A stretch of DNA of 63,945 nt, filler included, from Octopus bimaculoides (taxonomy: Eukaryota): NCBI RefSeq assembly GCF_001194135.2. It is 7 parts of 6 records of this genome, joined end to end, with 100 filler letters (N's around TTAATTAATTAA, not from the genome) between each part and the next. Parts side by side here need not be neighbours in the genome. Positions count along the whole stretch, not along the records: positions 1 to 21,484 come from NC_068985.1; positions 21,585 to 40,385 come from NC_068995.1; positions 40,486 to 51,431 come from NC_068991.1; 4 more parts are not named here. One strand, written 5' to 3'. Both the position numbers and the translations under genes were made by a program. Each line of letters opens with the position of its first letter. Within the stretch, counting starts at the first letter, position 1. Shown one piece after another: positions 4,389-42,430 of the stretch. The notes beneath the pieces are model-generated. The model ran no database searches. It was not told the origin of the DNA and saw only the letters and a list, made by a program, of their open reading frames with translations.

Positions 4389-4421
4389 TGTCATGATTAA
4401 CGAAAGCGAAATCGGTCGACA
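4389..4421 (+). ncRNA. Degenerate minimal type I hammerhead ribozyme motif
   Basis: tgtc-ATGATTA-ac gaaa gc-GAAA-tcgg-TC-gaca: stem I is tgtc/gaca, the core differs from CTGATGA at 2 positions, and stem III is a near-palindrome. It lies about 250 nt downstream of the Penelope endonuclease on the same strand. Confidence 0.55.
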
Positions 4422-5503
4422 ACCACAATACTCTTTCATTTAAAATATATTATATTAAAACTATGTAAACTGTGTGGATTTCTCTTCTTTTATTATATAT
4501 ATATATATCTTTCTTGCATTGCAACTTACTACATGGGGGGGGGGNNNNNNNNNNNNNNNNNNNNNNNNNNNNNNNNNNNNNNNNNNNNNNNNNNNNNNNN
4601 NNNNNNNNNNNNNNNNNNNNNNNNNNNNNNNNNNNNNNNNNNNNNNNNNNNNNNNNNNNNNNNNNNNNNNNNNNNNNNNNNNNNNNNNNNNNNNNNNNNN
4701 NNNNNNNNNNNNNNNNNNNNNNNNNNNNNNNNNNNNNNNNNNNNNNNNNNNNNNNNNNNNNNNNNNNNNNNNNNNNNNNNNNNNNNNNNNNNNNNNNNNN
4801 NNNNNNNNNNNNNNNNNNNNNNNNNNNNNNNNNNNNNNNNNNNNNNNNNNNNNNNNNNNNNNNNNNNNNNNNNNNNNNNNNNNNNNNNNNNNNNNNNNNN
4901 NNNNNNNNNNNNNNNNNNNNNNNNNNNNNNNNNNNNNNNNNNNNNNNNNNNNNNNNNNNNNNNNNNNNNNNNNNNNNNNNNNNNNNNNNNNNNNNNNNNN
5001 NNNNNNNNNNNNNNNNNNNNNNNNNNNNNNNNNNNNNNNNNNNNNNNNNNNNNNNNNNNNNNNNNNNNNNNNNNNNNNNNNNNNNNNNNNNNNNNNNNNN
5101 NNNNNNNNNNNNNNNNNNNNNNNNNNNNNTGCTCGGCGATAGCCAAGGAAGAAAAGGATTATTGACCGGAAGAATGTGACCATGCCGGTGTAAGGGGAAG
5201 AGAGAGAGTGGTAGCGGGAGAAACAAAGGGAGGAAGTAGAAGAATAGGTGAGCAACGAGAGGAAAAGAGGAAGAGAGGAAGTACGAGGGGGAAAAAGAGA
5301 TACGTAGTAGTAACAGAGGAAGAACAAGAGGGGTAAAGAGAGATACGTAGTAGTAAACAGAGGAAGAACGAGAGGGGGGAAATGATAGAGGAAGAGAAAG
5401 AGAACGAGAAAGAGATAGAGTAGCGTCAGAAAATATAAAGTTGCGATAACTACTTACAAATTGGTGACGCTGCGTTCGGTCATGTAAAAACAAATAGTAT
5501 GTG

Positions 5504-5504
5504 C

Positions 5505-5566
<62 letters not shown>

Positions 5567-5599
5567 ATATGCGTGCATGTATATATGTGTGTGTGTGTG

Positions 5600-5651
<52 letters not shown>

Positions 5652-5790
5652 GACAGAGAGATACAGAGAGAGACAGAGACAGAGAGAGAGAGACAGATAG
5701 AGAGACAGAGAGAGAGACAGAGAGAGAGAGACAGAGAGAGACACACAGAGAGAAACAGAGACAGAGAGACACACAGAGAGAAAGAAAGAA

Positions 5791-5828
<38 letters not shown>

Positions 5829-5829
5829 T

Positions 5830-5865
<36 letters not shown>
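5504..5865. repeat. Compound microsatellite (GT)n/(GA)n/(GACA)n/(GATA)n
   Basis: Directly visible. It is representative of dozens of similar tracts in the window that generate spurious low-complexity ORFs. Confidence 0.95.
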
Positions 5866-5867
<2 letters not shown>

Positions 5868-7134
5868 ACATTGTGACTGAGGATGCTGAATATTATCAAT
5901 ATTGCTAGAAATAAAAGTTAAGACACTTAAAGCTGCATAAGCAACATTTATATACACGGATAACTACCCCAAAAGGTAAAGCTCGAAAACCACTGGGCTA
6001 AACTAGTCTTGTCTGTTATTTGCAGACTCATCAGCAGTGTCTATTCCCATTTCTCGGATGGTTCAGCTAAAGCCCTCTGTCAGTATATATTTTATATATT
6101 TGCTATATAAAATTATAGCTGATTTATCGAAATGTTAATGTGTACACTAAAAATTAATATATGCAGTTGCACGCAATATAAAACCATAAAGGAAAAATTT
6201 AATCGTCACTAATTGTGAATAGCACCCATAGTGTTATATACATTTAGACCACCACGAAGTATATATAAATATATATCCGTTTATATATACATATGCATTT
6301 ATATATANNNNNNNNNNNNNNNNNNNNNNNNNNNNNNNNNNNNNNNNNNNNNNNNNNNNNNNNNNNNNNNNNNNNNNNNNNNNNNNNNNNNNNNNNNNNN
6401 NNNNNNNNNNNNNNNNNNNNNNNNNNNNNNNNNNNNNNNNNNNNNNNNNNNNNNNNNNNNNNNNNNNNNNNNNNNNNNNNNNNNNNNNNNNNNNNNNNNN
6501 NNNNNNNNNNNNNNNNNNNNNNNNNNNNNNNNNNNNNNNNNNNNNNNNNNNNNNNNNNNNNNNNNNNNNNNNNNNNNNNNNNNNNNNNNNNNNNNNNNNN
6601 NNNNNNNNNNNNNNNNNNNNNNNNNNNNNNNNNNNNNNNNNNNNNNNNNNNNNNNNNNNNNNNNNNNNNNNNNNNNNNNNNNNNNNNNNNNNNNNNNNNN
6701 NNNNNNNNNNNNNNNNNNNNNNNNNNNNNNNNNNNNNNNNNNNNNNNNNNNNNNNNNNNNNNNNNNNNNNNNNNNNNNNNNNNNNNNNNNNNNNNNNNNN
6801 NNNNNNNNNNNNNNNNNNNNNNNNNNNNNNNNNNNNNNNNNNNNNNNNNNNNNNNNNNNNNNNNNNNNNNNNNNNNNNNNNNNNNNNNNNNNNNNNNNNN
6901 NNNNNNNNNNNNNNNNNNNNNNNNNNNNNNNNNNNNNNNNNNNNNNNNNNNNNNNNNNNNNNNNNNNNNNNNNNNNNNNNNNNNNNNNNNNNNNNNNNNN
7001 NNNNNNNNNNNNNNNNNNNNNNNNNNNNNNNNNNNNNNNNNNNNNNNNNNNNNNNNNNNNNNNNNNNNNNNNNNNNNNNNNNNNNNNNNNNNNNNNNNNN
7101 NNNNNNNNNNNNNNNNNNNNNNNNNNNNNNNNNN

Positions 7135-7547
7135 TACAACAAGGCACCAAAATTTACTGGAAATTTTTGCTGGAAATTAATACATTTGTATTGAAATATT
7201 TTTCATTGATAACTTCTTCACTGTTCTCAGTTCTGTTAACGGCTGGGCGTTCGGGCGAGTATACTTGGCATTGATGTGGCAACATTTGAAATATTGTCTA
7301 GGTAAATGCAGCTGATGAGGACTGATCAGATTTACGTTGTGAAACGTATTTGAAGAGTCAGAAACCGGTGCTGCATTATCCAATTCCGGGTTGTCCATTT
7401 ATCGAATGTTCTTCCTAGAGGTAAGACAAATTTTCATGTTTGTTGCACACACACACATTTTTGCCAGTATATACGCAGTGAAGCTATACAATAGCGTCGT
7501 AATTGTATCGATTGCTATTTTCCAGTAAATATCGGTGCCTTGTTGTA
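7135..7547 (+). mobile_element. Non-coding foldback element with a central hammerhead-like motif
   Basis: Terminal inverted repeats 7135-7163 and 7519-7547 match at 27/29. The inner arms are degenerate inverted copies. The HHR-like motif at 7305-7377 is centred on the element midpoint (7341). Confidence 0.7.
7305..7377 (+). ncRNA. Type I hammerhead ribozyme-like motif with long stem II
   Basis: Stem I aatgcag/ctgcatt (7 bp); CTGATGA at 7312-7318; stem II gact..tcaga..tacgtt-GTGA-aacgta..tttga..agtc; GAAA at 7361-7364; palindromic ACCGGT stem III. Position 17 is G, which is non-permissive for cleavage. Confidence 0.7.
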
Positions 7548-7925
7548 CCACTCATCTGAATTTATATATATATATATATACCCTTATAGGGCTTTATTTT
7601 GCTGGAAATTNNNNNNNNNNNNNNNNNNNNNNNNNNNNNNNNNNNNNNNNNNNNNNNNNNNNNNNNNNNNNNNNNNNNNNNNNNNNNNNNNNNNNNNNNN
7701 NNNNNNNNNNNNNNNNNNNNNNNNNNNNNNNNNNNNNNNNNNNNNNNNNNNNNNNNNNNNNNNNNNNNNNNNNNNNNNNNNNNNNNNNNNNNNNNNNNNN
7801 NNNNNNNNNNNNNNNNNNNNNNNNNNNNNNNGGGAGAATGTACGAAAAAAAAACAACAACAAACGAGGACAGGTGGTGTAAACAACAAAAGGATGTATTA
7901 GTTTAACGCTCGGGAATACAGAAAG

Positions 7926-7962
7926 TCTTTAACGTTTCGAGCTACGTTCTTCAACAGAAAGA
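7926..7962 (-). ncRNA. Minimal hammerhead ribozyme-like motif
   Basis: Minus strand: tcttt-CTGTTGA-a-gaac gta gctc-GAAA-cg-TT-aaaga. Stem I is a perfect 5 bp, stem III lies in the AACGTT palindrome, and the core has A6>U. Confidence 0.6.
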
Positions 7963-8052
7963 ATACGGAGAAAACAAGGAGAAAAACACGGAGAAAAAAA
8001 TTGAATGGTTTGGTCAGCGATCTATTTAAAAAATATATAAAGATATATATAA

Positions 8053-8104
8053 TCATATCACGTGATTTCGGACCTTGTGGTAAAAACTTAGTATTCATCA
8101 GTAA
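8053..8104 (-). ncRNA. Hammerhead ribozyme-like motif (TCACGTGA stem III family)
   Basis: Minus strand: tta-CTGATGA-...ggtcc-GAAA-tcacgtga-TA-tga. The core is intact and ATCACGTGAT is a perfect palindrome; stem II is weak. Confidence 0.6.
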
Positions 8105-8294
8105 GTGTTACTGTCGAGTGCTAAATATAATCGCATCACCATATATGAATTGACCATTTGAATGAAGCGGCAAATTCAAAATGATCGTAGTTAATAGATT
8201 TTTTTCCAATATATAAAGATATTATTATTAATAACAAAAATAATAATATAAGTGGCTAGCAAGCATAAAATAACTATAAAGTTAAAATTATCAA

Positions 8295-8765
8295 TTTATA
8301 ATCAGGATACAAGATAGTTTACAGCTTCTGGATACAGGATAGTACACAGAATAGAAATAAGTGCCATTACGACTCAAAACCCACAGTTATCACTGGTGAA
8401 TTCGAAGAAACAAGTAAATATAAAGCCAACTTACCCATAGCAATTAAAAATCACAAATGAATTTGCAGGCGTACTTATATCACGTGATTTCGCACCCTGT
8501 GAGCATTATTGTGCTAAAAATTCTTGCGTAACCAGCCCTCTGCAGAAATACTCACTGATGAAAACTAAGTGTTTACCACAGGGTCCAAAATTATGTGATA
8601 TGAGAGCGTGTGTAAATTTGTTTGCACTTTTTAATTACTATGGGTAAGTTGGCTTTATATTTACTCGTTTCCTCGAGTGTGCACAAGTGATAACTGTATT
8701 TTTAGCCGTTATGACTCTTATTTCTAGCAATGCTGTGTACTATCTTGTACCCTGATTATAGAGTA
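8295..8765. repeat. Head-to-head inverted duplication of a hammerhead-bearing unit
   Basis: About 8295-8505 is the imperfect reverse complement of about 8575-8765 (e.g. taaatataaagccaacttacccatag / ctatgggtaagttggctttatattta). HHR-like motifs lie at about 8478-8535 (-, degenerate) and 8551-8604 (+), around the centre. Confidence 0.8.
8551..8604 (+). ncRNA. Degenerate hammerhead motif (same family as 8053-8104)
   Basis: ctca-CTGATGA-...ggtcc-AAAA-ttatgtga-TA-tgag. Stem I is ctca/tgag. The G12>A and C>T changes are consistent with CpG decay. Confidence 0.55.
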
Positions 8766-8856
8766 ATATATATATAATTGTTAAACAGGACAGCAAACAC
8801 TAAGGCAAGGCAAACATCTCAAGTTGTATACAATATTATTATAGGAAGAAATTCGA

Positions 8857-8914
8857 AATCTTACAGCTGTTTCTTGGATATCCCCGAGTATGAGATATTC
8901 CGTCATCAGAGACA
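8857..8914 (-). ncRNA. Hammerhead ribozyme motif (ACAGCTGT stem III family)
   Basis: Minus strand: tgtct-CTGATGA-c ggaatatc..gatatcc aa-GAAA-cagctg-TA-agatt. The core is intact, stem III is palindromic and the cleavage triplet is GUA. Confidence 0.7.
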
Positions 8915-9779
8915 AATAGAGACAAAATAGAGAAAATGAGAATGGTATATGTTAATAAGATGACGACATAGAGGAAGGGAGTAAAAGAATAAGGAGATGG
9001 GAAGAAAGAAGAAAAAAGAAGCATAAAAATTCATAATTCAACTTTCCGAAATTATAGAAACCAGAGCATGAGTCCTTAGGTGCAATCCTTCGTAGATCCA
9101 TGAGCGTAAGTCCTTAGGTGTAATCCTGCGTATATCCATGTGCATTAAAATCTTGATATAGTAGATATCTGGAGAAAAAAGACGCCAATGTATCAAAGTT
9201 CAATAACAGAATGGTAACGGAAGAGGCTATTAAGTGGTAAAAGTGAAGAAAACAAAATAAATAGAAAGGGAAATAGATAGAGTGAATGGAGGGATTTTAA
9301 GGACTGGCTATAGGATAAAGTAAGGTGCACAGGTGTGTGATGTCTAAGAATTGTGTACGGGGTATCCGAGAAGATAAGAGAGAAGATGAAGAGGTAGAGA
9401 AAGATAGGGTAAAATAATAGAGCAAAATGAAAGGAATTTAAAGAGAGTAGTAGATGTCTGGTAGTCTCAAAGTCTAAAGTTATTGGGGAGGAAATTTAGT
9501 AGTAATTGCTTGTGTCTGTTCTGGCTAAGGTTAGTGGCTGTAGAGTTATTTTTAGCAATGGGGTTCTGTGTATGTAGGCAGTTGAGAAACGAAGAGATAG
9601 TTGAATGTTAAATTATTCATGAGCGGGAGTTAGAGTTAGGGGGTTTATATTAGGGGATTTATTGAGCTAAGGTTCAAAAATAAATTAAGGATAAATTAAA
9701 GAATTAATAGTTATCGCATAGTGTGATGTGGTAAGGTAGATAGAAATGAGGTAAGTCATAAGAGTTAGAGAGATAAAGA

Positions 9780-10090
9780 AGGGGTGTGTGTTCTTACGCG
9801 TAGTGAAGGCCTCGTTGTATTATTAAGCAATTGTGGTGAGTTGTGTGTTCGAATTTTGAGAGCTTCTTTTAAGCAAAATCCATAAATAGAGTGTTAGCTC
9901 TGATATGGGGTATCCGAATCTATTATAACCCAGGAAAATTTATACTGAATTTTTCTATTAATTAGATGGTGTATGTGGCTGGCTAGTGATGTGGAATTGC
10001 TATTCTCCTTATATTTAAACGAGTTTAAATGTGCATAATACCTTTGTTTAAATTGGTACTAGAACCAATGTAGTAGCTACAGGAGTTATT
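9780..10090 (-). mobile_element. Penelope-like element GIY-YIG endonuclease remnant
   Basis: Minus strand: SYYIGSST / QFKQRYYAHLNSFKYKENSNSTSLASHIHHL...FSWVII...PYQS*...FCLKEALKIRTHNSPQLLN, with one frameshift. Confidence 0.75.
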
Positions 10091-11555
10091 TACCATATTG
10101 TGAACGATGCATCGGTATATGACGTTGAATCTTCTACATTAGGCTTGCAGCGAGCAATCTGTCCCGGATCTGCAGTTGCATTTATCGGTTCTATGGTGGT
10201 TAAATGTTTTTTACAATGCCTCAAAACTGTTCTATCGATGGCTAGGTGATCCTTGGTACACTGAGAACTCTTCTTACATCCTCTTTGTTCCCTTGGCAGT
10301 ATTTCTTCCTGTACTAGGAAAGTGTTTGTCTTTGCCACACATATTCTAGTGAGTATCTTCCAGATTATGTTCAGGCATGCTAGTTTCCCACAATATTCCC
10401 CTTTCTTCTATCTTTCATTACAAGCGCTGTCCTCCCAGTCACCATCCACGCGGGGACTGTACCTTTCTGAACACACTCATTCAATTGGGCTGCTAGTCTT
10501 TCATGCACCGCATGGCATTTCTTCAGCCAGAAGCCATGAATCCCGTCTGGTACGTAGGCTTTCCAGTTAAGCACTTTACCCACTAGTTCTTTCACATTAC
10601 CCGTGCTTATGACTATATTCCTTTGTTTCTTTCCTCCTTATAATTCTGTCTTGATAGTTCCTATCCACATTACATCCCTTTTATGCACCACATTTTCCCC
10701 ATAACCGCTCCAGAACTTCCTGGCTTGGTTTGCACCAGGAGCGACATTTTCCCCCATTGTCTCTTTCTAACGTTCGGAAGAATTGCTTCGGGTTATTTTT
10801 TAACAATATGTTCTCGAACTGTTTCTTTCTGTTCGCAAATCTTCTGATCTGGTTTTTGCCATGATCCTCTGTTTTAACTGCTCTATTACTGTATCAAGCC
10901 CGTTCTTCTGTATTTTATATTTCTTTTCTAGTTTTTCTCGATCGGTTTTTTTCTCATTTTTCCAATTTCTTCTTAACCATTGCTCAATTTTGTCTAGATC
11001 TTGCCTTGCTCGCATTATGTCCCTTTCAATGCGTCGTTTCGACCATGGTTCTCTTGCTCCGCCATTTTTTGTTCTCTCAAGTTGTAATTTCTCCTCAACA
11101 AGTAGCGCAATAGCTCGGAGAAGATTCCTTGTTTCTGTTGTGTCCTCCGTCTGGATGTATGGTATGACAGTATTTATCTTTTGTGTTACTTTTTTATCAT
11201 ACTCCTATCTACCCTTCTCATATTCATGGTGATTTTTTTCTTCTGGAACATTCATCAAGTCGGTGAGTCGTCTTTGAATTTCAAGCAATTCATTATCTAG
11301 TTGATTCATTTCCCCTGCATGTCCACCCACCACAGTATCAGAATTCACTGTATAACATTCCTGTTCCTCATCCTCAACAACCCCATCACCATTTCCCTAT
11401 TCCTCTTGTCTACTCTTCTCCCTGCTTTCAACTCCTACCTCTCTGTTTTCAACTCCGACCACCCTTTGTAGCCCGTCCGCGGGGTCTCTCAGGCTCTCAC
11501 TAATCCAAGATATTCCTACTCCAGTTAAGTACCTTTTCCTCCTAGTCAAACCAAG
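10090..11555 (-). mobile_element. Dong/R4-clade LINE remnant (N-terminal region and RT start)
   Basis: EPWSKRRIERDI...KKYKIQKNGLDTVIEQLKQRIMAK; NWKAYVPDGIHGFWLKK...GRTALVMKD..KGNIVGN; QRGCKKSSQCTKDHLAIDRTVLRHCKK. It has multiple stops and frameshifts. Confidence 0.85.
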
Positions 11556-11556
11556 C

Positions 11557-11602
<46 letters not shown>

Positions 11603-12178
11603 TTTTCATCCTTTCGGGGTCGATAAAATAAGTACCAGTTGAACACTGGGATCGATGTATTCGACTCATCTGCACNNNNNNNNNNNNNNNNNNNNNNNNN
11701 NNNNNNNNNNNNNNNNNNNNNNNNNNNNNNNNNNNNNNNNNNNNNNNNNNNNNNNNNNNNNNNNNNNNNNNNNNNNNNNNNNNNNNNNNNNNNNNNNNNN
11801 NNNNNNNNNNNNNNNNNNNNNNNNNNNNNNNNNNNNNNNNNNNNNNNNNNNNNNNNNNNNNNNNNNNNNNNNNNNNNNNNNNNNNNNNNNNNNNNNNNNN
11901 NNNNNNNNNNNNNNNNNNNNNNNNNNNNNNNNNNNNNNNNNNNNNNNNNNNNNNNNNNNNNNNNNNNNNNNNNNNNNNNNNNNNNNNNNNNNNNNNNNNN
12001 NNNNNNNNNNNNNNNNNNNNNNNNNNNNNNNNNNNNNNNNNNNNNNNNNNNNNNNNNNNNNNNNNNNNNNNNNNNNNNNNNNNNNNNNNNNNNNNNNNNN
12101 NNNNNNNNNNNNNNNNNNNNNNNNNNNNNNNNNNNNNNNNNNNNNNNNNNNNNNNNNNNNNNNNNNNNNNNNNNNNNN

Positions 12179-12512
12179 CTAAAAGAAATGGAAAAACTTT
12201 CAAAATACAAAGACCTGGAAATAGAGATAACTCGAATGTGGAATCTAAAAACAGAAACAATTCCTATCATAGTAGGTGCCTTAGGTATAATAAAAAAATA
12301 TTCAGACAAATACATAACAAAAACACCAGGACTTACAAATATATATAACATACAGAAAATTGCACTACTGGGTACTGCACACATTCTACGCAAAACACTT
12401 TCAATACAGTAAACATAAGAGCACCACAGCAAACCACAGCACATACCCAAGGCGCACAGAGCTGCGCTCGGTAGTGAAGTGAAAGTACGTTATAAAAATA
12501 AAACTACTGAAT
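12179..12512 (+). mobile_element. Dong/R4-clade LINE 3' end (restriction-like endonuclease C-terminus and 3' UTR)
   Basis: KEMEKLSKYKDLEIEITRMWNLKTETIPIIVGALG...IQKIALLGTAHILRKTLSIQ*, followed by a UTR and a (TAA)n tail. Confidence 0.88.
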
Positions 12513-12545
12513 GATAATAATAATAATATATCGTAAATCATACGA

Positions 12546-12602
<57 letters not shown>

Positions 12603-12817
12603 GGTGGTGAGCTGGCAGAATCGTTAGCACGCCGGGCGAAATGTTGAGCGGTATTTCGTCTGCCGCTACGTTCTGGGTTTATATTCCGCCGGAGTCGACT
12701 TTGCCTTTCATCCTTTCCGGGTCGATAAAATAAGTACCAGTTACGCACTGGAGTCGATGTAATCGACTTAATCCCTTCCCCCAAATCTGAGGCCTTATGC
12801 TTCCAGTAGAAAGGATT
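12603..12817 (+). mobile_element. SINE family B copy (about 210 bp), in a (TTA)n tract
   Basis: ggtggtgagctggcagaatcgttagcacgccgggcgaaat...gtcgactttgcctttcatcc...; at least 10 copies in the window. Confidence 0.85.
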
Positions 12818-12929
12818 GTTATTATTATCATTATTATTATTATTATTATCATTATTATTATTATTATTATTATTATGATTAATATTATTATTATTGCGAG
12901 CTGGCAAAAACGTTAGAACGCCGGGTTTA

Positions 12930-14705
12930 ACATGTTCTCTTTGAATTTCGTTTTTGTTCTTTTCTCTTTTACCAGCCTTGATTACCTATACTTTATTCAT
13001 TGCCTTTAGAAACTTTTCTGTATTGTCATGGAAATAATCAAGAAAGCTATTCCGTTGCTTCTGCACACACTTTTCCATAACAATTAGGCCGTTTCCACCT
13101 TGGTCAACCAGTTGATATCAGCCTCCTGATGATGGGCTCCTGATGATGGCCAACAGCTATCCAGATTCCATTTGGCCTTTCAACTCCCTAGCTTCCTTCA
13201 AATCTACTCCGTTTCGTTACGAAAATAACGCACACTCAAGCCCGAATTTCAGTTCTATATCATTTGAGAAAATATGCCCAAAACTTTTCAGCTGCTTCTC
13301 ATTTTTCGCATGAAGCTTTAAATCGCATAAAGCTTTAAATCGCATAAAGCTTTAAGTCATCCATGAATAGGAGATGATTTATCTGACCATACCCTTTTCC
13401 CAAATCATACGCTATTTTGTCATTCTGTAATATCAGACTGAGTGGCGTCATGGCCACTATAAATAAGAACGGAAATATGCTATCATCTTGGAATATACCA
13501 CAGCTGATGTTCACCTTCCCAAGCTTTTGTTTCCCCCCAATCAAGTCAGTGCTCCGATGTTTCATACCTTCCTTGACCAATTTCTCCATACTTTCTACTT
13601 CTCAAAATATTCTCATTGTTTTACTCATCCAACTGTGCGGCATCATCTCGTATGCATTTTATAATCCAACCATGCTACATTCAATCTACGTCTGCAATTT
13701 CTGATAATCATTTTATCAATTAACAACTAATCTTCAGTTGCCCTACTTTGCCTCCTGCACTTCTGTTCCACTGGAAGTAACTTGTTACTTTCCAGATAAT
13801 GATAGAGTTTTTCCGCCAAGATACCGATCATGAGCTTTCACATAAAGTGACAAACAGGTTATAGGTTAAAAAAATTCGCACCAATATATCTTTCAAGGGA
13901 TACTTAAGACACAACAACGTTTGTCCACCTGTCATCCAAGTAGGAATGTATCCCAGCTACAAGCATTCATCAAGGTGTACCGCGATACTGTCATGCAGCC
14001 GTGTAAAATTCTTCAGCCAATAACCTTGTACAACATCTGGTCTGGTTCTTTCCAATTTGGTTTTGTTTTCAACTTCAGTCTCACTGAGTATAGATCAATC
14101 CTAACGTCCTTCTCTTTCGGCACATTAACAAGCTGCTCTTCACCTGTGTGTCTCACTGACATGTTCCAAGGTTCTCACTGACATGTTCCAAGGTTCTCAC
14201 TGACATGTTCCAAAGTTCTCTCCAAAACACTTTGTTTTCTTCCGAACCAGGAATCATCTCCGTACGTGGTTCCCCATTCTATTTCCTCAAAAGCCCGTCT
14301 TCTATTCGATCTATTTTGTTCAAAACCTTTGCATCAAGCATCATGGCTTTCAATTTAGCTTTTAACGCCACCACTCGTTGTGATATTTTTTCCTCTCTCT
14401 TCAAACTACTACTGTCCATTCAATTTTCTAATGCCTCATTAATGGGTTCCCCTCTCATTATCCTATTTAATTGCCTCAATTCTTTACTTGACTTTTCCAA
14501 CTTCATTCGTATTCTCTTCAGTTTTGTTCTGTCTTTTCCTTTTCTTTTCTTTTTTTTTTTTTTGCTTCTTTTCTATAGCTGACTTCCGCTTGTATCCTAT
14601 TATGTCAGCTACAACATTGGCAGCAGCTATAATTAGCTGGTGTGTTTCACTAATGTTCTCTGTTTTAAACCAGATTCAAACGCTGTTTAATTTGTATATG
14701 GCTCA
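12930..14705 (-). mobile_element. Dong/R4-clade LINE remnant, internally deleted
   Basis: NISETHQLIIAAANVVADIIGYK; LGKVNISCGIFQDDSIFPFLF; QINHLLFMDDLKLYA (RT catalytic YxDD-like motif FMDD); MKCGLECALFS. Confidence 0.8.
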
Positions 14706-14744
14706 CATTATTATTATTGTTGTTGTTGTTCCTGCTGTTGTTGT

Positions 14745-15275
14745 CGTTGGCGAGGTGAGACGTGTTTTTTCTGAGCTCCGTGAGTTGTAGTTTGTGTTGA
14801 AAAAAAGACCCAGACAAGGGGGACGTTATAGAGAATTTCAGGCCCATCACTCTGCTCAATGCAGAGATGAAGATTTTGGCCAAGATGCTAGACAAGAGGT
14901 TGGCGCTTGTCGTGGACAAGCTGATTGGCGAGACGCAAATATGCATCATCCCAACCAGGACTATTCACAACCTCCACCTCATAGAGAGGATGGGTAGCGA
15001 AGCTGGCATAGGTGGGACTCTGATCAAATTAGAGCAGTCTAAAGCCTTTGATAGAGTCGACCATCAATACTTATCAGCTGTTCTCGGGGCAGCTGGTTTC
15101 GGTCCAGGTTTCCGCAGTTGAATTGCTGCTTTGTACAGCGGAATCTGCTCGGTTGTTGGGGTGAATGCGCTCGGTCCGGCAAGGGTGTCCTCTCTTCTTG
15201 TACTGACTCCTGAACTACTGCTGCGGAATTTGGAAGTATTGAGGGTGTGTTCCGTGTAATCTAGGATGTGGGAGA
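14745..15275 (+). mobile_element. Tx1/L1-clade LINE RT fragment
   Basis: MKILAKMLDKRLALVVDKLIGETQICIIPTRTIHNLHLI...LIKLEQSKAFDRVDHQYL. Confidence 0.85.
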
Positions 15276-15775
15276 AGCGTGTCTGCCAAAATAAAGCAAT
15301 CAAAATCACCCGAAAACAACAACAACAATATACTAACACCCACGCTTCCAACACTTTCACTAATACCACCACTACCAGCACCACAGACACAGCTAACAGT
15401 ATAAGGCACAACAGGGTCAACACAAAAAGTAAACGAAAATAGCAAAAGCACCACAAAACTCACCGGCATAAACACAGACAACACAAACTTACTATTATAT
15501 ATAAAGAAAAATACAGACATCAAAATTACTGACTTTGTTTCCCCCACGAATAACACACCGCCACGACATATACAGATCCTTCGAACATTGCAACATACAT
15601 ACAGCAACATAGAATCCAAATTTCCTCAGGCGTTGGAGGCTTCAACACGAAAGTGCCCCGGAACGTCTATAAATCCTTGGTCATAGAGACCACCACGACC
15701 CACTTAAGGAGCGGGACATCTGCTTCGCTCCCACTCCAGAGTACTCTGCTTTTTTTCTCCTTACCAGCGACTCAA

Positions 15776-18060
15776 ATGGTTATACTCAAAGTAGTTTGCA
15801 TAAACGTCCGTTGCCTGGGGTCCCCTTTGAAACAACGACCTTAGGTCACGAGGAATAGATGTAATAGCCATTACTGAATCAAGACTAACCGAGCCGCGAG
15901 CTTTCATGCCTATTTTCGATGACTACGAGATCTACGCATCTCCGTGTCGGTGGGGAATGGATGGTGGGAGTACAGTGGTATTGTTTCGGAAAGATCGCGA
16001 TCTCAAAGTAAGATAAGTCTTCTTGGACCCGGAAGGTAGGCTGGTGGTCCTGGACATTAGCGGTAGTAACGGTGGGGCATTCAGACTGGTGGCTGTTTAC
16101 GCACCGACAGGTGCAAAACAGCCGGAATACTTCAGGCGCCTGGAGTTCTTCCTGGGTACGTCCCTGCCTTTGGTGTTAGTGGGCGATTTCAACCCCGTCT
16201 TATATGCACAATTGGATTGTATGGGGCTATCGGATAAGAAAGGGGGTTGCAAAAGCCTCGCAAACCTGCTCAGACACTTTCAAATGTCTGACAGATACTG
16301 ACTGGATTTCCCGAATATGCTAATGTGGACATGGGCAAACCACATCAGAACAGCCAGATCGTATCTAGATAAAGTATTTTGCAGGTCTTTAGATGGGGAT
16401 AGTATTAGTTGTCCACAATTTCAAATCGTCGGCTACACAGATCACAAATTGGTGAGCTCTAAGGTTGATTTAGATAGCATACGTAGACAGGGCACTGGCT
16501 ACTGGAAGCTAAACACGTTATTCCCGGCGTGCCAGGCTTACAGAAACTGGTTTAAAGAGTTAGTTCAGAAAGCTTTGACAAGGGCAATCGTCAACATTAA
16601 ATAGTAGTATAACCTAAAAAGGGCCATCAAAGTAGAATCCGTTACGTTTAGCAAAGTTATAGCTGTAAAAAGAATTAGAATAGAGGGTGATTTAGTGAGA
16701 AAAGTTAAAAGAGGCACTTAGGAAAGGCATTGCAATTGACGTGCCGGCAGTGAGGTTGGCCCTCGATCAACACTTCAACGCCAAGCACGAAGGTTGCATT
16801 GTCAGAGCTAAGGCACGTGCTCTGAGACAAAAGTGAACCAAAGCTGTCCGATAGGCCCGGGTGGCCGTGGCGTAAAATGGCAACAAAAACACCATTTTGT
16901 CTTTAGTGGACCAAAATGGGCGCACGGTGAACGAGCCGGGGCAGATATGTGTGGCTTTTCATCAGTATTTTGCCGATTTGTTCGGGACGAACGGTGGGCC
17001 AGATCGCACGATGGATTTCACTGCCTACCTCGATGACCAAACACGACTGTCAGAAAGAGATGCAGAGTGTTGCGAAAAGCCAACAACAATTGAGGAAATA
17101 CGGGACGAGATAATGAGCTGACGGGGGTGGGAATCTCCAGGATTAGATGGTCTACACTACGAGCTTTATTTTAGTATGCCAGACTTGTATGCAGGCTTCT
17201 TGATAGATGTCTACTGCAACTGGCAACAGAATGAAATAAGTTCCAAATTTGTGGGCCGAGGAGCAGTGCTATTGCTGAGAAAGGTTCCAGACAAGGGGGG
17301 AGGTATTAGATCATTTTAAGCCCATCACTCTGCTCAACGCAAACATGAAAATTTTGGCCAAGGTGTTAGTGAAGAGGTTGACGCTAGTCGTCGAGAAACT
17401 GGCTGGAGACGCACAAACATGTGCCATCCCAAATAGGTCCATCTACGACAACCTCCACCTCATTCACTACATCGTAGATAGGGTGGTTAAGAAACCTGGC
17501 ATGGGTGGAGCTCTGATCAATTTAGATCAGTTAAAAGCCTTTGATAGGGCTGACCATCAATATTTGACGGCTGTCTCACGGCGGTCGGTTTCAGTCCGGT
17601 TTTCCGCGGTTGGGTCGTTGCCATGTACAATGACATCTACTCGATAGTCGAGGTAAATGGTCACCAATCGGAACCATTAAACATCGTACGTTCGGTCCGT
17701 CAAGGGTGCCCACTCTCGTCGCTTCTGTATGTAATGACTCTCGAGCCATTGCTTCGGAAACTGGAGACGCTGAGAGACATCTCTTGTGAACTAGGATGTG
17801 GGAGAGTTGTGTCAACATACGCAGATGACGTCACTGTCATAGTGTCGGACGACAAGCACAGAGACCTGGTCAGCACTACTGTGAAAGAATACGTGGAAAT
17901 AACGGGAGCAAAGATTAACCCAAAAAAGTCGGTGGACCTGCAGCTCGGCACCTGGAGAAGCAGATTCATGCCGACCGGTAGCGTTGTAGAACGTTGGACG
18001 GTCGTGTCCGAATCAGTGCTCGGGGTCTGGTTCGGACCGGACCTCCAACTGGAGGTTCGG
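15776..18060 (+). mobile_element. Tx1/L1-clade LINE ORF2 (APE endonuclease and RT), decayed
   Basis: ATG at 15776: MVILKVVCINVRCLGSPLK; DPEGRLVVLD..FRLVAVYAP..LVGDFN; WTW..SYLDKV..YTDHKLV; GYWKLN; KAFDRADH; VRQGCPLSSLLY; YADDVTV. It has many stops and frameshifts. Confidence 0.9.
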
Positions 18061-18574
18061 TCTATCTATAAAAACACCACATCGTATTTACGATAAAGGA
18101 ATCTATCTATGGAAAATTACATCGTAGTTAAGAAGTAAAAATCTATAAACATATCAAAGTTTTAACAATCATAGAAAGCAATAGAAAAGGCTTACACACT
18201 TTGGGGGAAGGCTGTTAAATGGCCATCCTATCGTGTGAATGCTTACAGCAGCACTGAAAACCCAGTGGAAGAGGAGGGGGAGAGAGGGGGAGGACGAAGG
18301 GGAAGCAGGTAGGTAAGCTCGCCAAAATTCCAGCGTGGGGACGAATTTATGTATAGAAATCTAGATTTTTTGGGAGGACCTAGCAGAGCTAAGATAAAGA
18401 AATTTATGAAATCTTTGAGAAGAGAGTCGACAAGTTAGAACTAGCATAGCTAAGATATAGAAATTTATGAACAACATCTCAAAGTTTTAAAAAAGTATAG
18501 TAATATATCTATAAAACACCACATCGTATTTACGATAAAGGAATCTATCCTATCGCGTGAATGTTTGTTATTAT

Positions 18575-18974: not shown

Positions 18975-18976
<2 letters not shown>
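18575..18976 (-). mobile_element. Dong/R4-clade LINE 3' fragment
   Basis: KYKDLLIEIEKMWHLKATTVPVIVGFLG...LQEVQKIVLTGTTHILRRALSP*, with (TAA)n on both sides in element orientation. Confidence 0.85.
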
Positions 18977-19015
<39 letters not shown>

Positions 19016-19016
<1 letters not shown>

Positions 19017-19325: not shown

Positions 19326-19332
19326 CAGATTA

Positions 19333-36052: not shown

Positions 36053-36508
36053 ATATTGTAGGTCCTGATAACGTAGGAAATCGGTGTATTCCCAATGCAG
36101 TGCTCAACTCAGACGCCTGCCAATGTACATTCTTGAACTGGAACTTTAAAGAAAAGCTGCCATTAATCGCTTCACTACATCGCATATAAACTCTCAGATT
36201 TCAACTCTAAATGCTTATCCTACACCACGATGCGTTTTGTGAGAACCACTAACTCAGAAGAATATATTTAGTTTCAGTTAGTTTTAAATTCCATTATCCC
36301 CAAATGTACCATCTCTACAAGCTTCAAAGAGTTCCCAATCTTTATTCACACTTACACACACGTTTATCATTCATACCCACCGGCCTACCTTGGCATTCAT
36401 TCGGTATGAACACTCAGATGTAAATTAATTAATTAATTAATTTATTTATTTATTTAGATAGATAGATAGATAGATGGATAAATAGACGGATAGATAGATA
36501 GACAGACT

Positions 36509-36575
<67 letters not shown>

Positions 36576-36591
36576 GGGTGAATAGATAGAC

Positions 36592-36642
<51 letters not shown>

Positions 36643-38307
36643 TAGATAGATTGATGGATAGATGGATAAATAGATAGATAGATAGATAGATAGATAGATN
36701 NNNNNNNNNNNNNNNNNNNNNNNNNNNNNNNNNNNNNNNNNNNNNNNNNNNNNNNNNNNNNNNNNNNNNNNNNNNNNNNNNNNNNNNNNNNNNNNNNNNN
36801 NNNNNNNNNNNNNNNNNNNNNNNNNNNNNNNNNNNNNNNNNNNNNNNNNNNNNNNNNNNNNNNNNNNNNNNNNNNNNNNNNNNNNNNNNNNNNNNNNNNN
36901 NNNNNNNNNNNNNNNNNNNNNNNNNNNNNNNNNNNNNNNNNNNNNNNNNNNNNNNNNNNNNNNNNNNNNNNNNNNNNNNNNNNNNNNNNNNNNNNNNNNN
37001 NNNNNNNNNNNNNNNNNNNNNNNNNNNNNNNNNNNNNNNNNNNNNNNNNNNNNNNNNNNNNNNNNNNNNNNNNNNNNNNNNNNNNNNNNNNNNNNNNNNN
37101 NNNNNNNNNNNNNNNNNNNNNNNNNNNNNNNNNNNNNNNNNNNNNNNNNNNNNNNNNNNNNNNNNNNNNNNNNNNNNNNNNNNNNNNNNNNNNNNNNNNN
37201 NNNNNNNNNNNNNNNNNNNNNNNNNNNNNNNNNNNNNNNNNNNNNNNNGAAAAAATTTTAATTGATTGAATTTGGGGTCGTGCTATTATTTAGAATTTAT
37301 TAATGCGTGTAGAACTTTGTAAAGAAGCCTGTAGGTATTTCTCTTTTGTTAGGTAGGCACAAGGTGTGACAGTATTTTTGTTGCCTTTGGTATTATTGAA
37401 TTTAATCCTTTTGCTTTGAGAAGGTAAAGGTTAAAGATGTAAAGGCTACCTTTTGACACCAGCATAGCTTCTGTCGCAAATAATTATTTTTCCAATAATC
37501 CTGCTGGTTATGTGCAGCATCAGTAACTGAAAAAACTCTGGTATTCTATGCATCGGGCGCAGGCTTGGCTACGTGGTAAGAAGCTTGCTTCTCAACCACA
37601 TGATTCTGTGTTCTGTTACACTGCCTGATACATTGAGCAAATGTCTTCTGCTAAAGTCTCGGGTCGACCAAAGTGTTGTGGGTGGATTTGGTAGCGGGAA
37701 ACTGAAAGGAGCCTGTCGTGTTACCCTTCTTGGCACAAGTCCGAGCAAGGTTGTTTACGGAAGACCAGCACTCGCCCATGCATACTAGCCTCCCCTCTCC
37801 ACACCACCGAATACAAGGCAAAGGCAAAGGCCGGTACAGCTTGGCACCAGTGACATCGCAACTCATTTCTACACCTGAGTGAACAGACGCGACGTGAAAT
37901 AAAGTGTCTTGCTGAAGAACACAATACACAGTCCGGTGCGCGCGCGCGCATGTGTGTGTGTAAATATATAAAAGAAATAACTATTACACTAAAATTAAGC
38001 AAACATTCCGCTCTTATTACGCCACCTTGTATATTCCACCTTCACTACTAATAAAGTTTTCTAGTTTTCATAACTTATCATCTAGAAGCCTTCTAGAAGC
38101 TCTTGCTCGCTTACGCACTTTTAGTTTAAGTTAAAAACACAGTCTTGTATCCCTACTAATATCTTTTCTGGAAGGCTGCTTCCTAAATAGGGACAGAGTC
38201 TTGTATCACCTTTTACTAAGACTTTTGCTTTCCCTAGGTTAGTTTTGCTGACTTCGTGATCGTAGGGCTTGTCTCTACGTTTGAAGCTTTTATTATTATT
38301 ATTATTA

Positions 38308-38475
38308 TTATTCAGTAGTTTTATTTTTATAACGTGCTTTCACTTCACTACCGCGCGCAGCTCTGTGTTCCTTGGGTATGTGCTGTGGTTTGCTGTGATG
38401 CTCTTATGGTTACTGTATTGAAAGTGTTTTGCGTAGGATGGGTGCAGTGCCCAGTAGTGCAATTTTCTGTATGTT
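38308..38475 (-). mobile_element. Dong/R4-clade LINE extreme 3' fragment, same family as 12179-12512
   Basis: Near-identical reverse complement of about 12350-12510; (TAA)n on both sides. Confidence 0.85.
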
Positions 38476-38476
38476 A

Positions 38477-38511
<35 letters not shown>

Positions 38512-38559
38512 ATTATTATTAATTATTATTATTTTACTCATTCAGCTTTGAGGACTTGG

Positions 38560-39290
38560 TCATCTGTATATAGGAGTTCCAACGGAAGGTCACTCTTCAC
38601 CTCTGTTCTGACCCGGTAGACCACAATAAATAACAGTACATATATCTGTATTCTAGATTTCTATCTAGAAGAATTTCCGATTAACAATCACTTCTCTGAT
38701 AGTTACCACTCCATCCTGAATATGGCTCTCACCAACTATTCGTCCACATCCAGAGACTTAACTCCAAGAACTAATTAATGGTTCCTGATTTAAGCACAAG
38801 GCCAACAATTCTGAGGGGAGGGGAATAGTCCATCCATTGACCCCATTATTTGAGAGGCGCTTTATTTTATCTACCCAGAAAGAATGAAAAGCAAAACCGA
38901 CCTGGGCGAGATTTGAACTCAGATTCTAAATTACCAGAACAGATACTGCAAAGCTTTTCTTCGTACATTATAACGACTCTGCCAGCTCACTGCCTCCGTA
39001 AATGAATTAATATTGAGTACAGTGGCTTACTCATGGTTAATTAAGAACTGCAACTCGTCTAAACAAATTTTCTTTCCAATAAATCTGATGTTTCTATATT
39101 TTCCAAGTCCTTGATCTAGTTGACAATAATACTGCTACAACAATCATTTGAAATAACATCTCTTTGTGCTATCTGATTCACTATTCAAGTGATTATTTCG
39201 TGTCCTACTTTGCCTCATATTTCCATCATCTCAGCAACTGTCCACCATGGTCCAGTTGCTTTCATTGACTTAATATCCTAATTGACCTTT
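38560..39290 (-). mobile_element. RTE/CR1-type LINE RT fragments interrupted by a SINE B (38793-38996)
   Basis: MKATGP..VAEMM...IVNQI....ISNDCCSSIIVN; LDVDE*LVRAI. Confidence 0.6.
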
Positions 39291-39435
39291 TGACATACAT
39301 CTGTCAACTTCAATAGCTGAACCTTCCGTTTGGTCAACTTTGGTTTCTCTTTTAGTCTTTCTCTCTCTGTTTCCAACTCTTACTCTTTTTCCGTTTCTCT
39401 CCCTATCTCTCTCCACCTCTCTCTCTCCCCTTCTC

Positions 39436-39523
<88 letters not shown>

Positions 39524-39613
39524 AGAATAAGGGCAGGGAATCGTCAATTAATAATAGAATTAATAATTAACAATTTTGCCAAGTATGATTATATATATAT
39601 ATATATATATATA

Positions 39614-40385
39614 CAGTGGGCACGGTTCCGCTAACAGCTAATTAGTGAAGCTAACTTTTCGTTTAGCGGATTAGCGTTTTCGCTAACTTTGGAAACCATC
39701 AGCGGACCAATTAGCTTCCATTAAATTTTAAGTCCGCTAATAAAATTCACAAGTCTGTTCCTATCTGTTGTGGGCATGTCTCGAAGAGTCTGTCAGGCAC
39801 GTTATTGGTTATTACGTGTACACGTGACAAGACGTGATTGATCGATGCAGCAGCAGCTAGCTGAGCAGTAATGTGTAATTCTGAAGTTTTGAGTTGTGTT
39901 CACTTACGACCTTGTCACGTTACAGACAGTCTTACAGTGTCAGCGACAGCAGTGTACGTTATCGGCTTACCAAGTTATCGCTTATCGTTATGGAAAGTGG
40001 AGACGTTTTTGTTGGGCCTGAGGATGAAGGGTCTGTTGAGGAATCTGCAACGACTGTGTGTGAGGTAGAGGTCGCTCAAGTTGAGAGCCAGGAGTCTCAG
40101 AACCCGTGATCCTCACCTGGACGACTACTTTGTCCTTACGTCAAGGGATAAGAGGAACACCAAATTCTTGTACTTCCGGTGAGTCATGTGCTTGCCCAAG
40201 GAGACCATCAAGGGACAAGCGGCGAGCCTCTACAATTTGAAGTCGCATGTCAAGATGAAACATCCAGCGCATGCCATCCAGTTTGAGGAGAGAATCAAGG
40301 CTGACTCTTCCCGTGGGGAAGACACGCTAATTTTGTTTGACCCGTTTAGCGGTTTAGAGTTTGCGAAGCTAACTTTTTTAGTTAG
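39614..40385 (+). mobile_element. Internally deleted hAT-like element with a BED zinc-finger remnant; right end cut by the linker
   Basis: Left end CAGTGGGCAC with clustered GCTAAC/GTTAGC subterminal motifs mirrored at 40340-40385; internal P.PHLDDYF...MCLPK...NLKSHVKMKH. Confidence 0.65.
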
Positions 40386-40485
40386 NNNNNNNNNNNNNNN
40401 NNNNNNNNNNNNNNNNNNNNNNNNNNNNNTTAATTAATTAANNNNNNNNNNNNNNNNNNNNNNNNNNNNNNNNNNNNNNNNNNNN

Positions 40486-40568
<83 letters not shown>

Positions 40569-40927
40569 CATATATACATACATACATACATACGTACATA
40601 TATATGTATACATATATATATATTTATGTATATGTATATATGTGTGTGTGTGTATATATATATACATATACATATATGTAAGACATTAAGTCTGCACATA
40701 CGTCACAGATGTACACACACACGCACACATATATATATCTATATATAAACATTGATCATAGAACAAACATCAAATTCGAGTCAACGACTTTATATATAAC
40801 ACCATACCTCCAAACATTTGGTCATATATAAATATTACCATGGTTCTTCAACGTATGAAATATACATATACAAAAAAACACAGAAGATAAAATTATATAT
40901 GCGAATAAAAATACAAATATATAGAAC

Positions 40928-41329
40928 TCAGGAGTGGCTGTGTGGTAAGTAGCTTGCTTACTAACCACATGGTTCCTGGTTCATTCCCACTGCGTGGCAT
41001 CTTGGGCAAAAGTCTTCTACTATAGCCTCGGGCCGACCAAAGCCTTGTGAGTGGATTTGGTAGACGGAAACTGAAAGAAGCCTGTCGTATATATGTGTAT
41101 ATATGTATGTGTGTGTATATGTTTGTGTGTCTGTGTTTGTCCCCGTAGCATTGCTTGACAACCGATGCTGGTGTGTTTATGTCTCCGTAACTTAGCGGTT
41201 CGGCAAAAGAGACCGATAGAATAAGTACTAGGCTTACAAAGAATAAGTCCCGGGGTCGATTTGCTCGACTAAAGGCGGTGCTCCAGCATGGCCGCAATCA
41301 AATGACTGGAACAAGTAAAAGAGTAAAGA
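40928..41329 (+). mobile_element. SINE family A, near full length
   Basis: Near-identical to 20105-20513; possible AGAAC target duplication at both ends. Confidence 0.9.
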
Positions 41330-41552
41330 GAGAACGGTGTATCAAAAAGGTAAATATAATCGACTAAAAATTGTAAAACGTGTCATGCTACTAAAAATTT
41401 AAACAAACTAAGCTAAAATAAAATATCGATCGACTAAAAAAATTTTTTCTACTCTCCTCACACAAAAGAGTACATCCAAAAAATTCAATTCATAAAACCA
41501 TGGTAGGTTAGTGTCTAGGAGCAAAATGAGTTCCACAAAATGAAGTCAAACA

Positions 41553-41635
41553 CACCTACGGCCATTTCGGGAGTTCATTGCCGCGGTTCGATTACTGTTA
41601 ATGCGCATCTCGGCAATGACCTCCTCATCAGGATG
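41553..41635 (-). ncRNA. Type I hammerhead ribozyme motif
   Basis: Minus strand: catc-CTGATGA-ggag g tcattgccg...cggcaatga a ctcc c-GAAA-tggccg-TA-ggtg. The core is intact, stem II is about 13 bp, stem III is near-palindromic and the triplet is GUA. Confidence 0.75.
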
Positions 41636-42430
41636 AACAAACAGGAAACTCAAATACTGGTTTTATGAAATGAACTTTTCGGACGTACTCTTTTGTGTGA
41701 GGGGAGTAAAAACAAAATGTTAGTCGATTGATATTTTGTTTTATTTCATTTAGTTTTTTAGTAGCATGACACGCTTTAGAATTTTTAGTCGATTATATTT
41801 ACCTTTTTGACAGGCTATTCTATATATTTGTACTTTTATTCGCATCTATATTTTTATCTTCTTTGTTTTTTATGTATATGTATATTTTTATATGTTGAAG
41901 AATCATGGTAATGTTTATATATGATCAAATTTTTACAGGTATGGTGTTATGTATATATGACTACACGTCACTGCTCTGTTATTCTACACCGGTAGTTCTC
42001 AACCTTTAAACACCCCCCCCCCATAGACCCCCTTCGATTCCTATTCTAATCTATTGGACCTCCATGCTAAAAAAACAAACAAGCATCCTATTTTAATCTC
42101 ATAATTAAATATTATTGGGAATTGTATAAAAAAATGTTTTTAAAATATTCTGTATATTGCAGAAGAATAAACCAATTTCTTGCGCATAAATTTTAATACC
42201 AAAATCTTGTATGGACTTTCAAGATTCCCAAGAACCCACACCTAACAGACATTTAATTCTTCACTACATTCCGCTATAGTAAGCTACACTACAATATGCC
42301 ACACCATTCCATGCCGAACTGCCAAACACTTCTACATAACACTGTGCTACACTCATATGCACATCTACGTTATGTATGCTACACTTCAACGCTACGCTAT
42401 TCTGCGCTACAATACTCCATGCTAAACAGT

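Follow-up and report, generated by a model that had tools for sequence, protein, structure and literature searches.

Hammerhead ribozyme motifs flanked by inverted arms in Octopus bimaculoides: probable 3′ ends of Penelope-like elements and their derivatives

Do hammerhead ribozyme (HHR) motifs lying between inverted arms represent a distinct kind of foldback element, or are they the product of a known mode of retrotransposition? This question was raised by a 63,945-nt stretch of the Octopus bimaculoides genome (RefSeq assembly GCF_001194135.2; seven parts of six records joined by filler letters, hereafter the window). The initial annotation of this stretch had proposed a family of arm–HHR–arm foldback elements, mobilised by Penelope-like elements and transcribed as rod-like RNAs. 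Our analysis indicates that the motifs probably mark the 3′ ends of several Penelope-like families and of their protein-less derivatives, and that the arms are likely a by-product of Penelope insertion and not a working rod. On that reading, the window holds Penelope ends and a retrozyme-like derivative, kinds that are already known, and no new foldback system.

Hammerhead motifs in the window

A hammerhead-like motif, or part of one, was present at all ten annotated positions. The window was scanned with a strict type I descriptor (exact CUGANGA, GAAA, a palindromic stem III of at least 6 nt and a stem I of at least 3 bp), which follows the published minimal form yet was formulated after the motifs were known. 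Six strict hits were obtained in the 63.9-kb window. When dinucleotides were shuffled locally in 500-nt blocks (200 shuffles), the mean was 0.02 hits and the highest count 1, and none reached six. The motif density, which the initial annotation had proposed to compare with shuffled sequence, therefore lies far above it. The strict hits were 7305, 8053, 8857, 27402 and 41553 (5 of the 10 annotated positions) and one further position, 24087. The other five annotated motifs are decayed, 8478 being a half.

An exact core with A at position 17 was found in 8053, 8857, 27402 and 41553. The core is present in 7305 but with G at position 17, and 4389, 5991, 7926 and 8551 carry one or two core changes each; in 8551, AAA replaces GAA and the palindrome is decayed. 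Motif 8478 comprises the 3′ half of a hammerhead and has no CUGANGA. According to the NUH rule, a hammerhead with G at position 17 should not cleave, and 7305 and 24087, which share this letter, are predicted to be non-cleaving. In these two unrelated motifs the G (window positions 7370 and 24163) pairs with C3, and most of the other motifs have A there; two cases are too few to infer editing. Motif 24087 was absent from the earlier list and has a weak stem II.

When up to one core mismatch was allowed, a relaxed scan gave nine candidates, six of them at annotated positions (7305, 7926, 8053, 8857, 27402 and 41553) and three elsewhere (2991, 24087 and 31021). Candidate 2991 was rejected as it lacks stem II, and 31021 as it sits inside an apparent DNA-transposon remnant, which we take to be a pogo/Tigger-like transposase. 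With the Rfam hammerhead models no site reached the gathering score; the best match was Hammerhead_HH9 at 7298–7390, with 17.6 bits against 52. Likewise, no hammerhead was among the 150 of 244 matches listed for the whole window, which are dominated by microsatellite-derived miRNA matches.

The region 7832–9000 was compared with data aligned to it at 80% identity, namely RNA runs X21 and X22 (raw reads, approximately 6% of each) and contig sets X1 and X14 (second organism). The G10.1–C11.1 pair of stem II is broken in most window copies, and the majority letters of other copies restore or strengthen stem II in three families, 7926, 8053/8478/8551 and 8857. Position 7947 of the 7926 family is restored in 99% of depth; in the 8857 family, 8875 is restored in 97% and 8893 in 93% of depth. 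In the 8053 family, 8094 (first pair of stem II) is restored in four of five contigs and 8103 (stem I) in all five, and 8093 also restores the first pair. These letters were taken from 40 of 316 variant rows and represent restoration, not two-sided covariation. Because they restore the stems, the hammerhead fold appears to have been maintained in active ancestors. The motifs are likely Penelope-type hammerheads, type I with a palindromic stem III, as judged from their sequence features, and the window copies are mostly decayed. No pile-up of read ends was detected at the predicted cleavage sites in the two RNA runs, a weak test in random-fragment libraries.

The motifs had been assigned to several unrelated families. 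Several families are indeed present, but 8053, 8478 and 8551 belong to a single one, and 27402 is related to 8857. In 7305, 8857 and 27402, which represent two families, the base of stem II is flanked on either side by an unpaired nucleotide, the 5′ one following CUGAUGA and the other, an A, preceding GAA; only the 5′ one is described in the available part of PMC4209133.

Inverted arms and the link to Penelope-like elements

Inverted arms were tested at nine sites with 300 shuffles each and were significant at three of them, 7305, 8551 and 41553 (0/300 shuffles at each). The arms at 27402 were marginal (18/300), and those at 5991 (75/300), 8857, 7926, 4389 and 24087 were not significant. Three of the four claimed arm–HHR–arm elements were thus confirmed, here termed E7305, E8300 (motifs 8478 and 8551) and E41553, and the fourth was not. 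No open reading frame (ORF) was found at the three, as had been stated, and they share no common terminal motif.

E8300 (8296–8763) consists of two truncated copies of one element. The left arm (8296–8501, minus strand) is a 5′-truncated copy whose start lies within stem II and which includes the 3′ half of the HHR (motif 8478). It is followed by a forward 5′-truncated copy (8502–8763, plus strand) with a leader of approximately 50 nt, a decayed HHR (core 8555–8561) and a 160-nt tail reaching a TA-rich site. The arms are identical in 143 of 181 columns (left arm against 8577–8755). Since an X1 contig covers 8245–8741 with no differences, E8300 is not an assembly artefact, and since the left arm holds half of the ribozyme, it is an inverted 5′-truncated copy of its own element and no separate terminal repeat. 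On the minus strand, the left arm continues through 8295–8123 into the complete HHR of this family at 8053–8122 (minus strand; palindrome ATCACGTGAT). The segment 8123–8295 (minus strand) is the 5′ part of the unit and is joined head to tail to the tail end at 8296; the same join is spanned by X1 record 1 (8155–8317) and appears in the joints 8273/8760, 8092/8241 and 8047/8658 of a contig of depth 58.9. The insertion is therefore laid out as a tandem on the minus strand followed by a short copy on the plus strand.

The unit of the 8053/8478/8551 family is ORF-less, approximately 400 nt long and arranged head to tail both in the window and at the contig joints. The minus-strand tandem holds no two consecutive complete HHR units, 8053 being complete and 8478 a half. 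With its type I HHR, this head-to-tail unit makes the family retrozyme-like, and the family was likely moved by Penelope-like machinery. The proposal of non-autonomous, Penelope-mobilised elements likely holds for at least this ORF-less family, but the proposal of a distinct foldback family does not gain support.

Copy numbers were estimated as summed contig depth divided by a single-locus depth of 61, which gives orders of magnitude and no true copy number. The estimates were roughly 33,000–35,000 for the 7926 family (order 10^4), 1,600–2,400 for the 8857 family (order 10^3) and 4–8, at 80% identity, for the 8053/8478/8551 family. The abundant families, 7926 and 8857, have no arms in the window; the foldback family is the rare one. 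Further loci of the foldback family were recognised in six X1 contigs (five from listed joints and one from pieces), of which four are without inversion in their visible part (depths 60.1, 65.2 and 58.9, and record 1). At depths 60.1 and 65.2, position 8499 or 8460 continues to 8208 on one strand, that is, the copies are collinear; the depth-58.9 contig, with its three joints, and record 1 join the tail end to the 5′ part as in the window. The contig of depth 55.6 has a head-to-head junction elsewhere, at 8130/8179. Three joints with 24–33-letter sides in repeat-crowded bins (8255/8643, 8270/8713 and alike) were left out, save those of the depth-58.9 contig. The left arm of E8300, with its half of the ribozyme, corresponds to the published pattern of Penelope insertion (PMC8557442), and the copies at other loci are collinear, arranged in tandem or inverted at a different place. 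The claim of a distinct foldback-element family is not supported: the E8300 arms arise from a truncated copy of the same element in inverted orientation, and most of the readable other loci are not inverted at that point.

In E7305, the left arm (7136–7299, minus strand) is an inverted, gappy copy of 7424–7546 whose outer end is truncated by a gap in the assembly. The HHR (7305–7377, plus strand) has a 7-bp stem I, a long stem II, the palindrome ACCGGT and the G17 described above. The sense 3′ tail (7378–7562, plus strand) contains the right arm at 7424–7546 and approximately 16 nt extra, followed by (TA)n from 7563. The arms are identical in 85 of 103 aligned columns, with large gaps. In E41553, the left, sense arm with the 3′ tail (40791–41515, minus strand) is interrupted at approximately 40927–41333 by a dispersed repeat resembling a short interspersed nuclear element (SINE), further copies of which occur across the window. 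The central HHR (41553–41635, minus strand) has a long stem II and the palindrome ATGGCCGT, and the inverted arm (41645–41955, plus strand) ends at a TA-rich site. Arm identity is 123 of 138 columns in the outer part and 150 of 185 in the inner part. The sense arm is separated from (TA)n by a 43-nt extension (40748–40790, minus strand) that has no counterpart at the other end of the element; by analogy, it is a candidate for the Penelope “tail”. In both elements, approximately 40–55 nt separate the predicted cleavage site from the point downstream at which the inverted copy stops. TA runs adjoin the 3′ ends of 4389, 7305, 8551, 27402, 41553 and the 7926 family.

Coding remnants provide a further link to Penelope-like elements. 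The segment 3547–4133 (plus strand) is a broken C-terminal part of a Penelope-like ORF with a CxxxCxxC linker and a GIY-YIG endonuclease of the Neptune/Nematis type. It matched 502 proteins at E ≤ 0.001 (phmmer), and tblastn mapped back to 3547–4133. When 12 of the phmmer relatives were scanned (Pfam, E ≤ 0.01), GIY-YIG was found in 11 and RVT_1 in 6, and a CX2-5CxxC linker precedes GIY-YIG in all 14 relatives longer than 690 aa. This linker is the mark of Neptune and Nematis (PMC8557442); the clade was assigned by this motif, not by a tree. A confirmed remnant of the reverse transcriptase (RT)–endonuclease lies upstream of an HHR at 4389 only. A possible second GIY-YIG remnant (9768–10150, minus strand) lies approximately 850 nt upstream of the 8857 HHR, and its translation contains endonuclease-like motifs resembling the description of the Hydra clade (PMC8557442). 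The blanks that Pfam and word-index searches gave for this segment are weak evidence because both also missed 3547–4133, which was found by HMMER. Of the two Penelope endonuclease remnants annotated earlier, the first is confirmed, and the second is recognisable at motif level only.

Penelope-like elements are known to leave inverted 5′-truncated copies and one-sided 30–40-nt tails and to use microsatellite targets (PMC8557442). The available part of PMC11167929 describes both strands being cut and extended at AT-rich DNA, with uncleaved RNA as the main template. By reference to such elements, the RT–endonuclease would have cut an AT-rich site, here (TA)n, and both strands would have been extended from the 3′ end of the element. 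Two cDNAs that stopped early and were joined head to head would give an inverted truncated copy followed by a forward truncated copy. If only the forward copy reached past the hammerhead, the result would be arm–HHR–arm (7305 and 41553); if both copies reached into it, two opposite-strand motifs would arise (8478/8551). In the active ancestors, the ribozyme would have cleaved as a dimer through its palindrome.

Several observations weigh against this explanation. The X1 contig of depth 69.6 carries a head-to-head junction near-identical to that of E8300 (8502 to 8164, or approximately 8504–8507 by loose alignment), and because independent insertions should not share both breakpoints, the E8300 foldback must have been copied at least once. 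In E7305 and E41553, the forward copy starts approximately 5–25 nt from the 5′ side of the ribozyme, tighter than random truncation requires, and no ORF links either of them to a Penelope-like element. Other copies were compared over 7832–9000, and the inverted-copy reading of E7305 and E41553 is drawn from their window copies. Junctions were read from 15 of 87 joints. No target-site duplication is readable at ends that fall in TA runs or an assembly gap. Finally, the 9768–10150 remnant had no significant match in any protein search, and a hidden Markov model built from 86 of 150 relatives gave an E value of 6.5.

RNA rods and alternative explanations

The predicted rods have free energies of −212 kcal/mol for E8300, −218 kcal/mol for the inner part of E41553 and −137 kcal/mol for E7305, as would be the case for any inverted repeat. 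In the predicted E8300 rod, the antisense arm pairs with stem III, with the cleavage site and with the 3′ strand of stem I, which buries the ribozyme, whereas the ribozyme region of E7305 and E41553 is predicted to be largely free of the arm duplex. The ribozyme of motif 8551 is thus predicted to be paired into the stem, in contrast to the suggested rod with a ribozyme at its apex.

Transition mismatches between the arms, counted on the ribozyme strand, comprised 22 G.U against 24 A.C (p = 0.88), with 34 transversions; the E7305 alignment in this count has 46 columns. Given this lack of G.U bias, neither selection for a duplex nor editing before insertion is indicated. The arms decay like neutral DNA, as seen in the lack of G.U bias, the transversions, the indels and the SINE insertion. 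Over E8300 (8300–8689), RNA depth did not exceed 1 in X21 and was 0 in X22, while the 7926 family reached up to approximately 2,700. The RNA runs had 103 places with A>G or T>C and 84 with G>A or C>T; the DNA runs had 102 and 100, respectively (p = 0.42). An ADAR footprint was rejected for now on the basis of the arm mismatches and this comparison, in which RNA has no A-to-G excess over DNA, contrary to the suggestion that the elements are editing substrates. The RNA libraries are apparently unstranded, come from a single study with unmatched DNA and may have lost circles; the near-zero E8300 RNA thus lends no support but does not show that the element is silent. The idea of a foldback family acting through rod-like RNAs is not supported, given the RNA depth of 0–1 over E8300, the lack of a G.U excess and the SINE in one arm.

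Among the alternatives, the one that survives best is that certain foldbacks have become mobile in their own right. RNA that reads through the inverted junction would have been copied again by Penelope-like machinery, giving non-autonomous arm–HHR–arm families with a fixed junction. The diverged second locus with the E8300 junction (the depth-69.6 contig, in pieces 8077–8164, 8393–8502 and 8700–8760) is what such a family would leave behind. The reading of this locus assumes that both equal-depth joints belong to one contig; a collinear reading (8164/8502) was rejected, as the contig covers 8107 and cannot cover the bin 8339–8377. The same alternative is favoured by the ribozyme region of E7305 and E41553, which lies largely outside the predicted duplex with the junction nearby, and by the ORF-less, tandem nature of the 8053/8478/8551 family, which must move in trans. 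However, that family has only about 4–8 relatives by a rough estimate, and most of the readable ones are not inverted at this point. The E8300 rod conceals both stem III and stem I together with the cleavage site, and neither the arm mismatches nor the RNA depth adds support. Segmental duplication also accounts for the shared junction equally well. The shared junction is a sign of common origin, either through DNA duplication or through re-copied foldback RNA, and the tables fit both. On balance, we consider mobile foldbacks unlikely, though clearly the strongest of the rivals. It is similarly doubtful that head-to-head Penelope insertions have founded fixed-junction foldback families, which would join tandem retrozymes and solo pseudo-long terminal repeats (pseudo-LTRs) as a third non-autonomous form. 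In that event, the depth-69.6 locus could be the first trace of such mobile foldbacks, with E7305 and E41553 as possible members, and by-products of insertion would be seen to give rise to mobile non-coding families, which would be a new route.

It is considerably less probable that the arms are the terminal inverted repeats of miniature inverted-repeat transposable elements (MITEs) or of foldback DNA transposons, with the hammerhead either captured by the transposon or brought in by the insertion of a short hammerhead element. MITEs and foldback DNA transposons are non-coding and have long inverted arms and TA-rich insertion sites, and the elements described here resemble them in having long inverted arms that end at TA-rich sites and no ORF; Tc1/mariner elements also use TA targets. 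They differ in that the E8300 arm copies its own 3′ end including half of the ribozyme, and in that collinear and head-to-tail copies of the family occur. The lack of a terminal motif common to the three elements and the one-sided extension of one of them also speak against this origin. Lastly, chance matches within AT-rich repeat DNA, which the missing Rfam gathering scores and the relaxed hit at 31021 might suggest, are scarcely credible given the shuffle counts and the stems restored by family majorities; chance is refuted for the strict hits and possible for 24087 and, taken singly, for 4389 and 5991.

Relation to known systems and neighbouring features

The elements explained here as Penelope ends share several features with endonuclease-containing (EN+) Penelope-like elements of the Neptune/Nematis and Hydra clades (PMC8557442), in which an HHR lies near the 3′ end and a CX2-5CxxC linker accompanies GIY-YIG. 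Partial tandems, as known from those elements, are seen here in the join of tail to 5′ part, which occurs in the window and also in record 1 and the depth-58.9 contig. Their adjacent inverted 5′-truncated copy has its counterpart in E8300 and in the second junction at 8130/8179, and the sequences of E7305 and E41553 appear consistent with it. One-sided tails and (TA)n targets may have their counterparts in the 43 nt at E41553 alone and in the TA runs at the 3′ ends of six elements or families, respectively. In contrast to the EN+ elements, the copies described here are short, decayed ends, and motif 4389 is their sole tie to a confirmed ORF remnant.

Minimal hammerheads of Penelope-like elements are treated in PMC4209133, the available part of which reports that minimal HHRs occur in opposite-strand pairs 100–700 bp apart, that a genome holds many families and that dimers cleave weakly. 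As far as that part goes, the likeness covers type I with a short stem I, the palindromic helix III, the opposite-strand pairs, the unpaired base after position 9 (7926 family) and the many unrelated families in a genome. The differences, set against the same part, are palindromes of up to 8–10 nt, the extra A before GAA in 7305, 8857 and 27402, and U at position 6 in the 7926 family; the supplements may already list such variants.

The ORF-less, head-to-tail unit of the 8053/8478/8551 family, with approximately 400 nt and a type I HHR, resembles the metazoan non-LTR retrozymes described in the accessible portion of PMC7229834, where mussel retrozymes measure 350–390 bp. It differs from them in its low copy number, its decay, the lack of two consecutive complete HHRs and the inversion of Penelope type. 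Such retrozymes have abundant linear and circular RNA, whereas depth here was 0–1 over 8300–8689 in two cDNA runs from which circles were possibly lost. A preprint (bioRxiv 10.64898/2026.07.22.740005) derives animal retrozymes from Penelope pseudo-LTRs, and the portion of its main text that was available contains neither octopus nor other molluscs. A repeat annotation of Octopus vulgaris (PMC13282606) lists 31 recently active Penelope-like families and, in its available part, does not mention ribozymes. Our literature search returned no description of octopus hammerhead families or of Penelope foldbacks with a fixed junction, which supplements, Repbase or Dfam may list.

If the motifs are indeed Penelope ends, hammerheads of Penelope type occur in this genome in many unrelated families, one of which has some ten thousand copies or more. 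Repeat pipelines could file such families as unknown or as inverted-repeat DNA elements, so that the value of the finding lies in annotation and not in a new system. The inverted junctions would be fossil records of Penelope integration, bearing on a possible origin of inversions by two-strand priming and on a possible clustering of truncations at the ribozyme.

The remaining motif loci are as follows. Motif 4389 (4389–4425, plus strand) is a degenerate minimal type I HHR with two core mismatches that lies approximately 260 nt behind the endonuclease remnant, with (TA)n near 4496. Motif 5991 (5991–6042, minus strand) is a decayed HHR with an exact CUGAUGA, a 5-bp stem II, AAG in place of GAA and the palindrome ACTAGT. 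The best-preserved HHR (27402–27450, minus strand) is related to 8857 and is followed by a tail of approximately 30 nt and (TA)n, with a marginal short arm near 27604–27639.

The abundant repeat with the 7926 HHR (7848–8025, minus strand) has the core CUGUUGA, and the 3′ end of the family adjoins (TA)n. In the loose-end consensus of contigs and reads, the core of this family is CUGUUGA or CUGUGGA, that is, with U at position 6, and the family is strongly represented in RNA. A change at this core position throughout so abundant a family is notable. In metagenomes, 25 loci matched the family, all of them over 18–26 nt and with no flank similarity, and they were dismissed as chance.

The part of the other abundant repeat that carries the 8857 HHR (8770–9000, minus strand; palindrome ACAGCTGT) is cut at 8770, where other copies continue. 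At 8804–8866, RNA reads of both runs skip 61 nt including the predicted 8857 cleavage site (109 reads in X21 and 33 in X22). The skip is not among the DNA-contig joints listed, and it may represent a transcribed deleted copy.

The window is gap-rich, with 6,965 N, and no tRNA gene was found in it by ARAGORN. Exons at 400–1205 presumably belong to a hemocyanin gene and those at 50646–51287 to a Six-type homeobox gene. The segments 30750–32100 (minus strand), 35175–35981, 14800–18100 and 57700–59060 are taken to be pogo/Tigger-like, mariner-like, L1/Tx1-like (long interspersed nuclear elements) and Ty3-like, respectively. An inverted repeat pair at 60158–60260 and 62765–62867 (103 nt, 99% complementary, 2.5 kb apart) is unrelated to the hammerhead loci. 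At least six hammerhead elements of different families are crowded into the 5.5 kb of 3547–9000, directly downstream of the hemocyanin-like last exon, and this crowding fits insertion into earlier TA-rich insertions.

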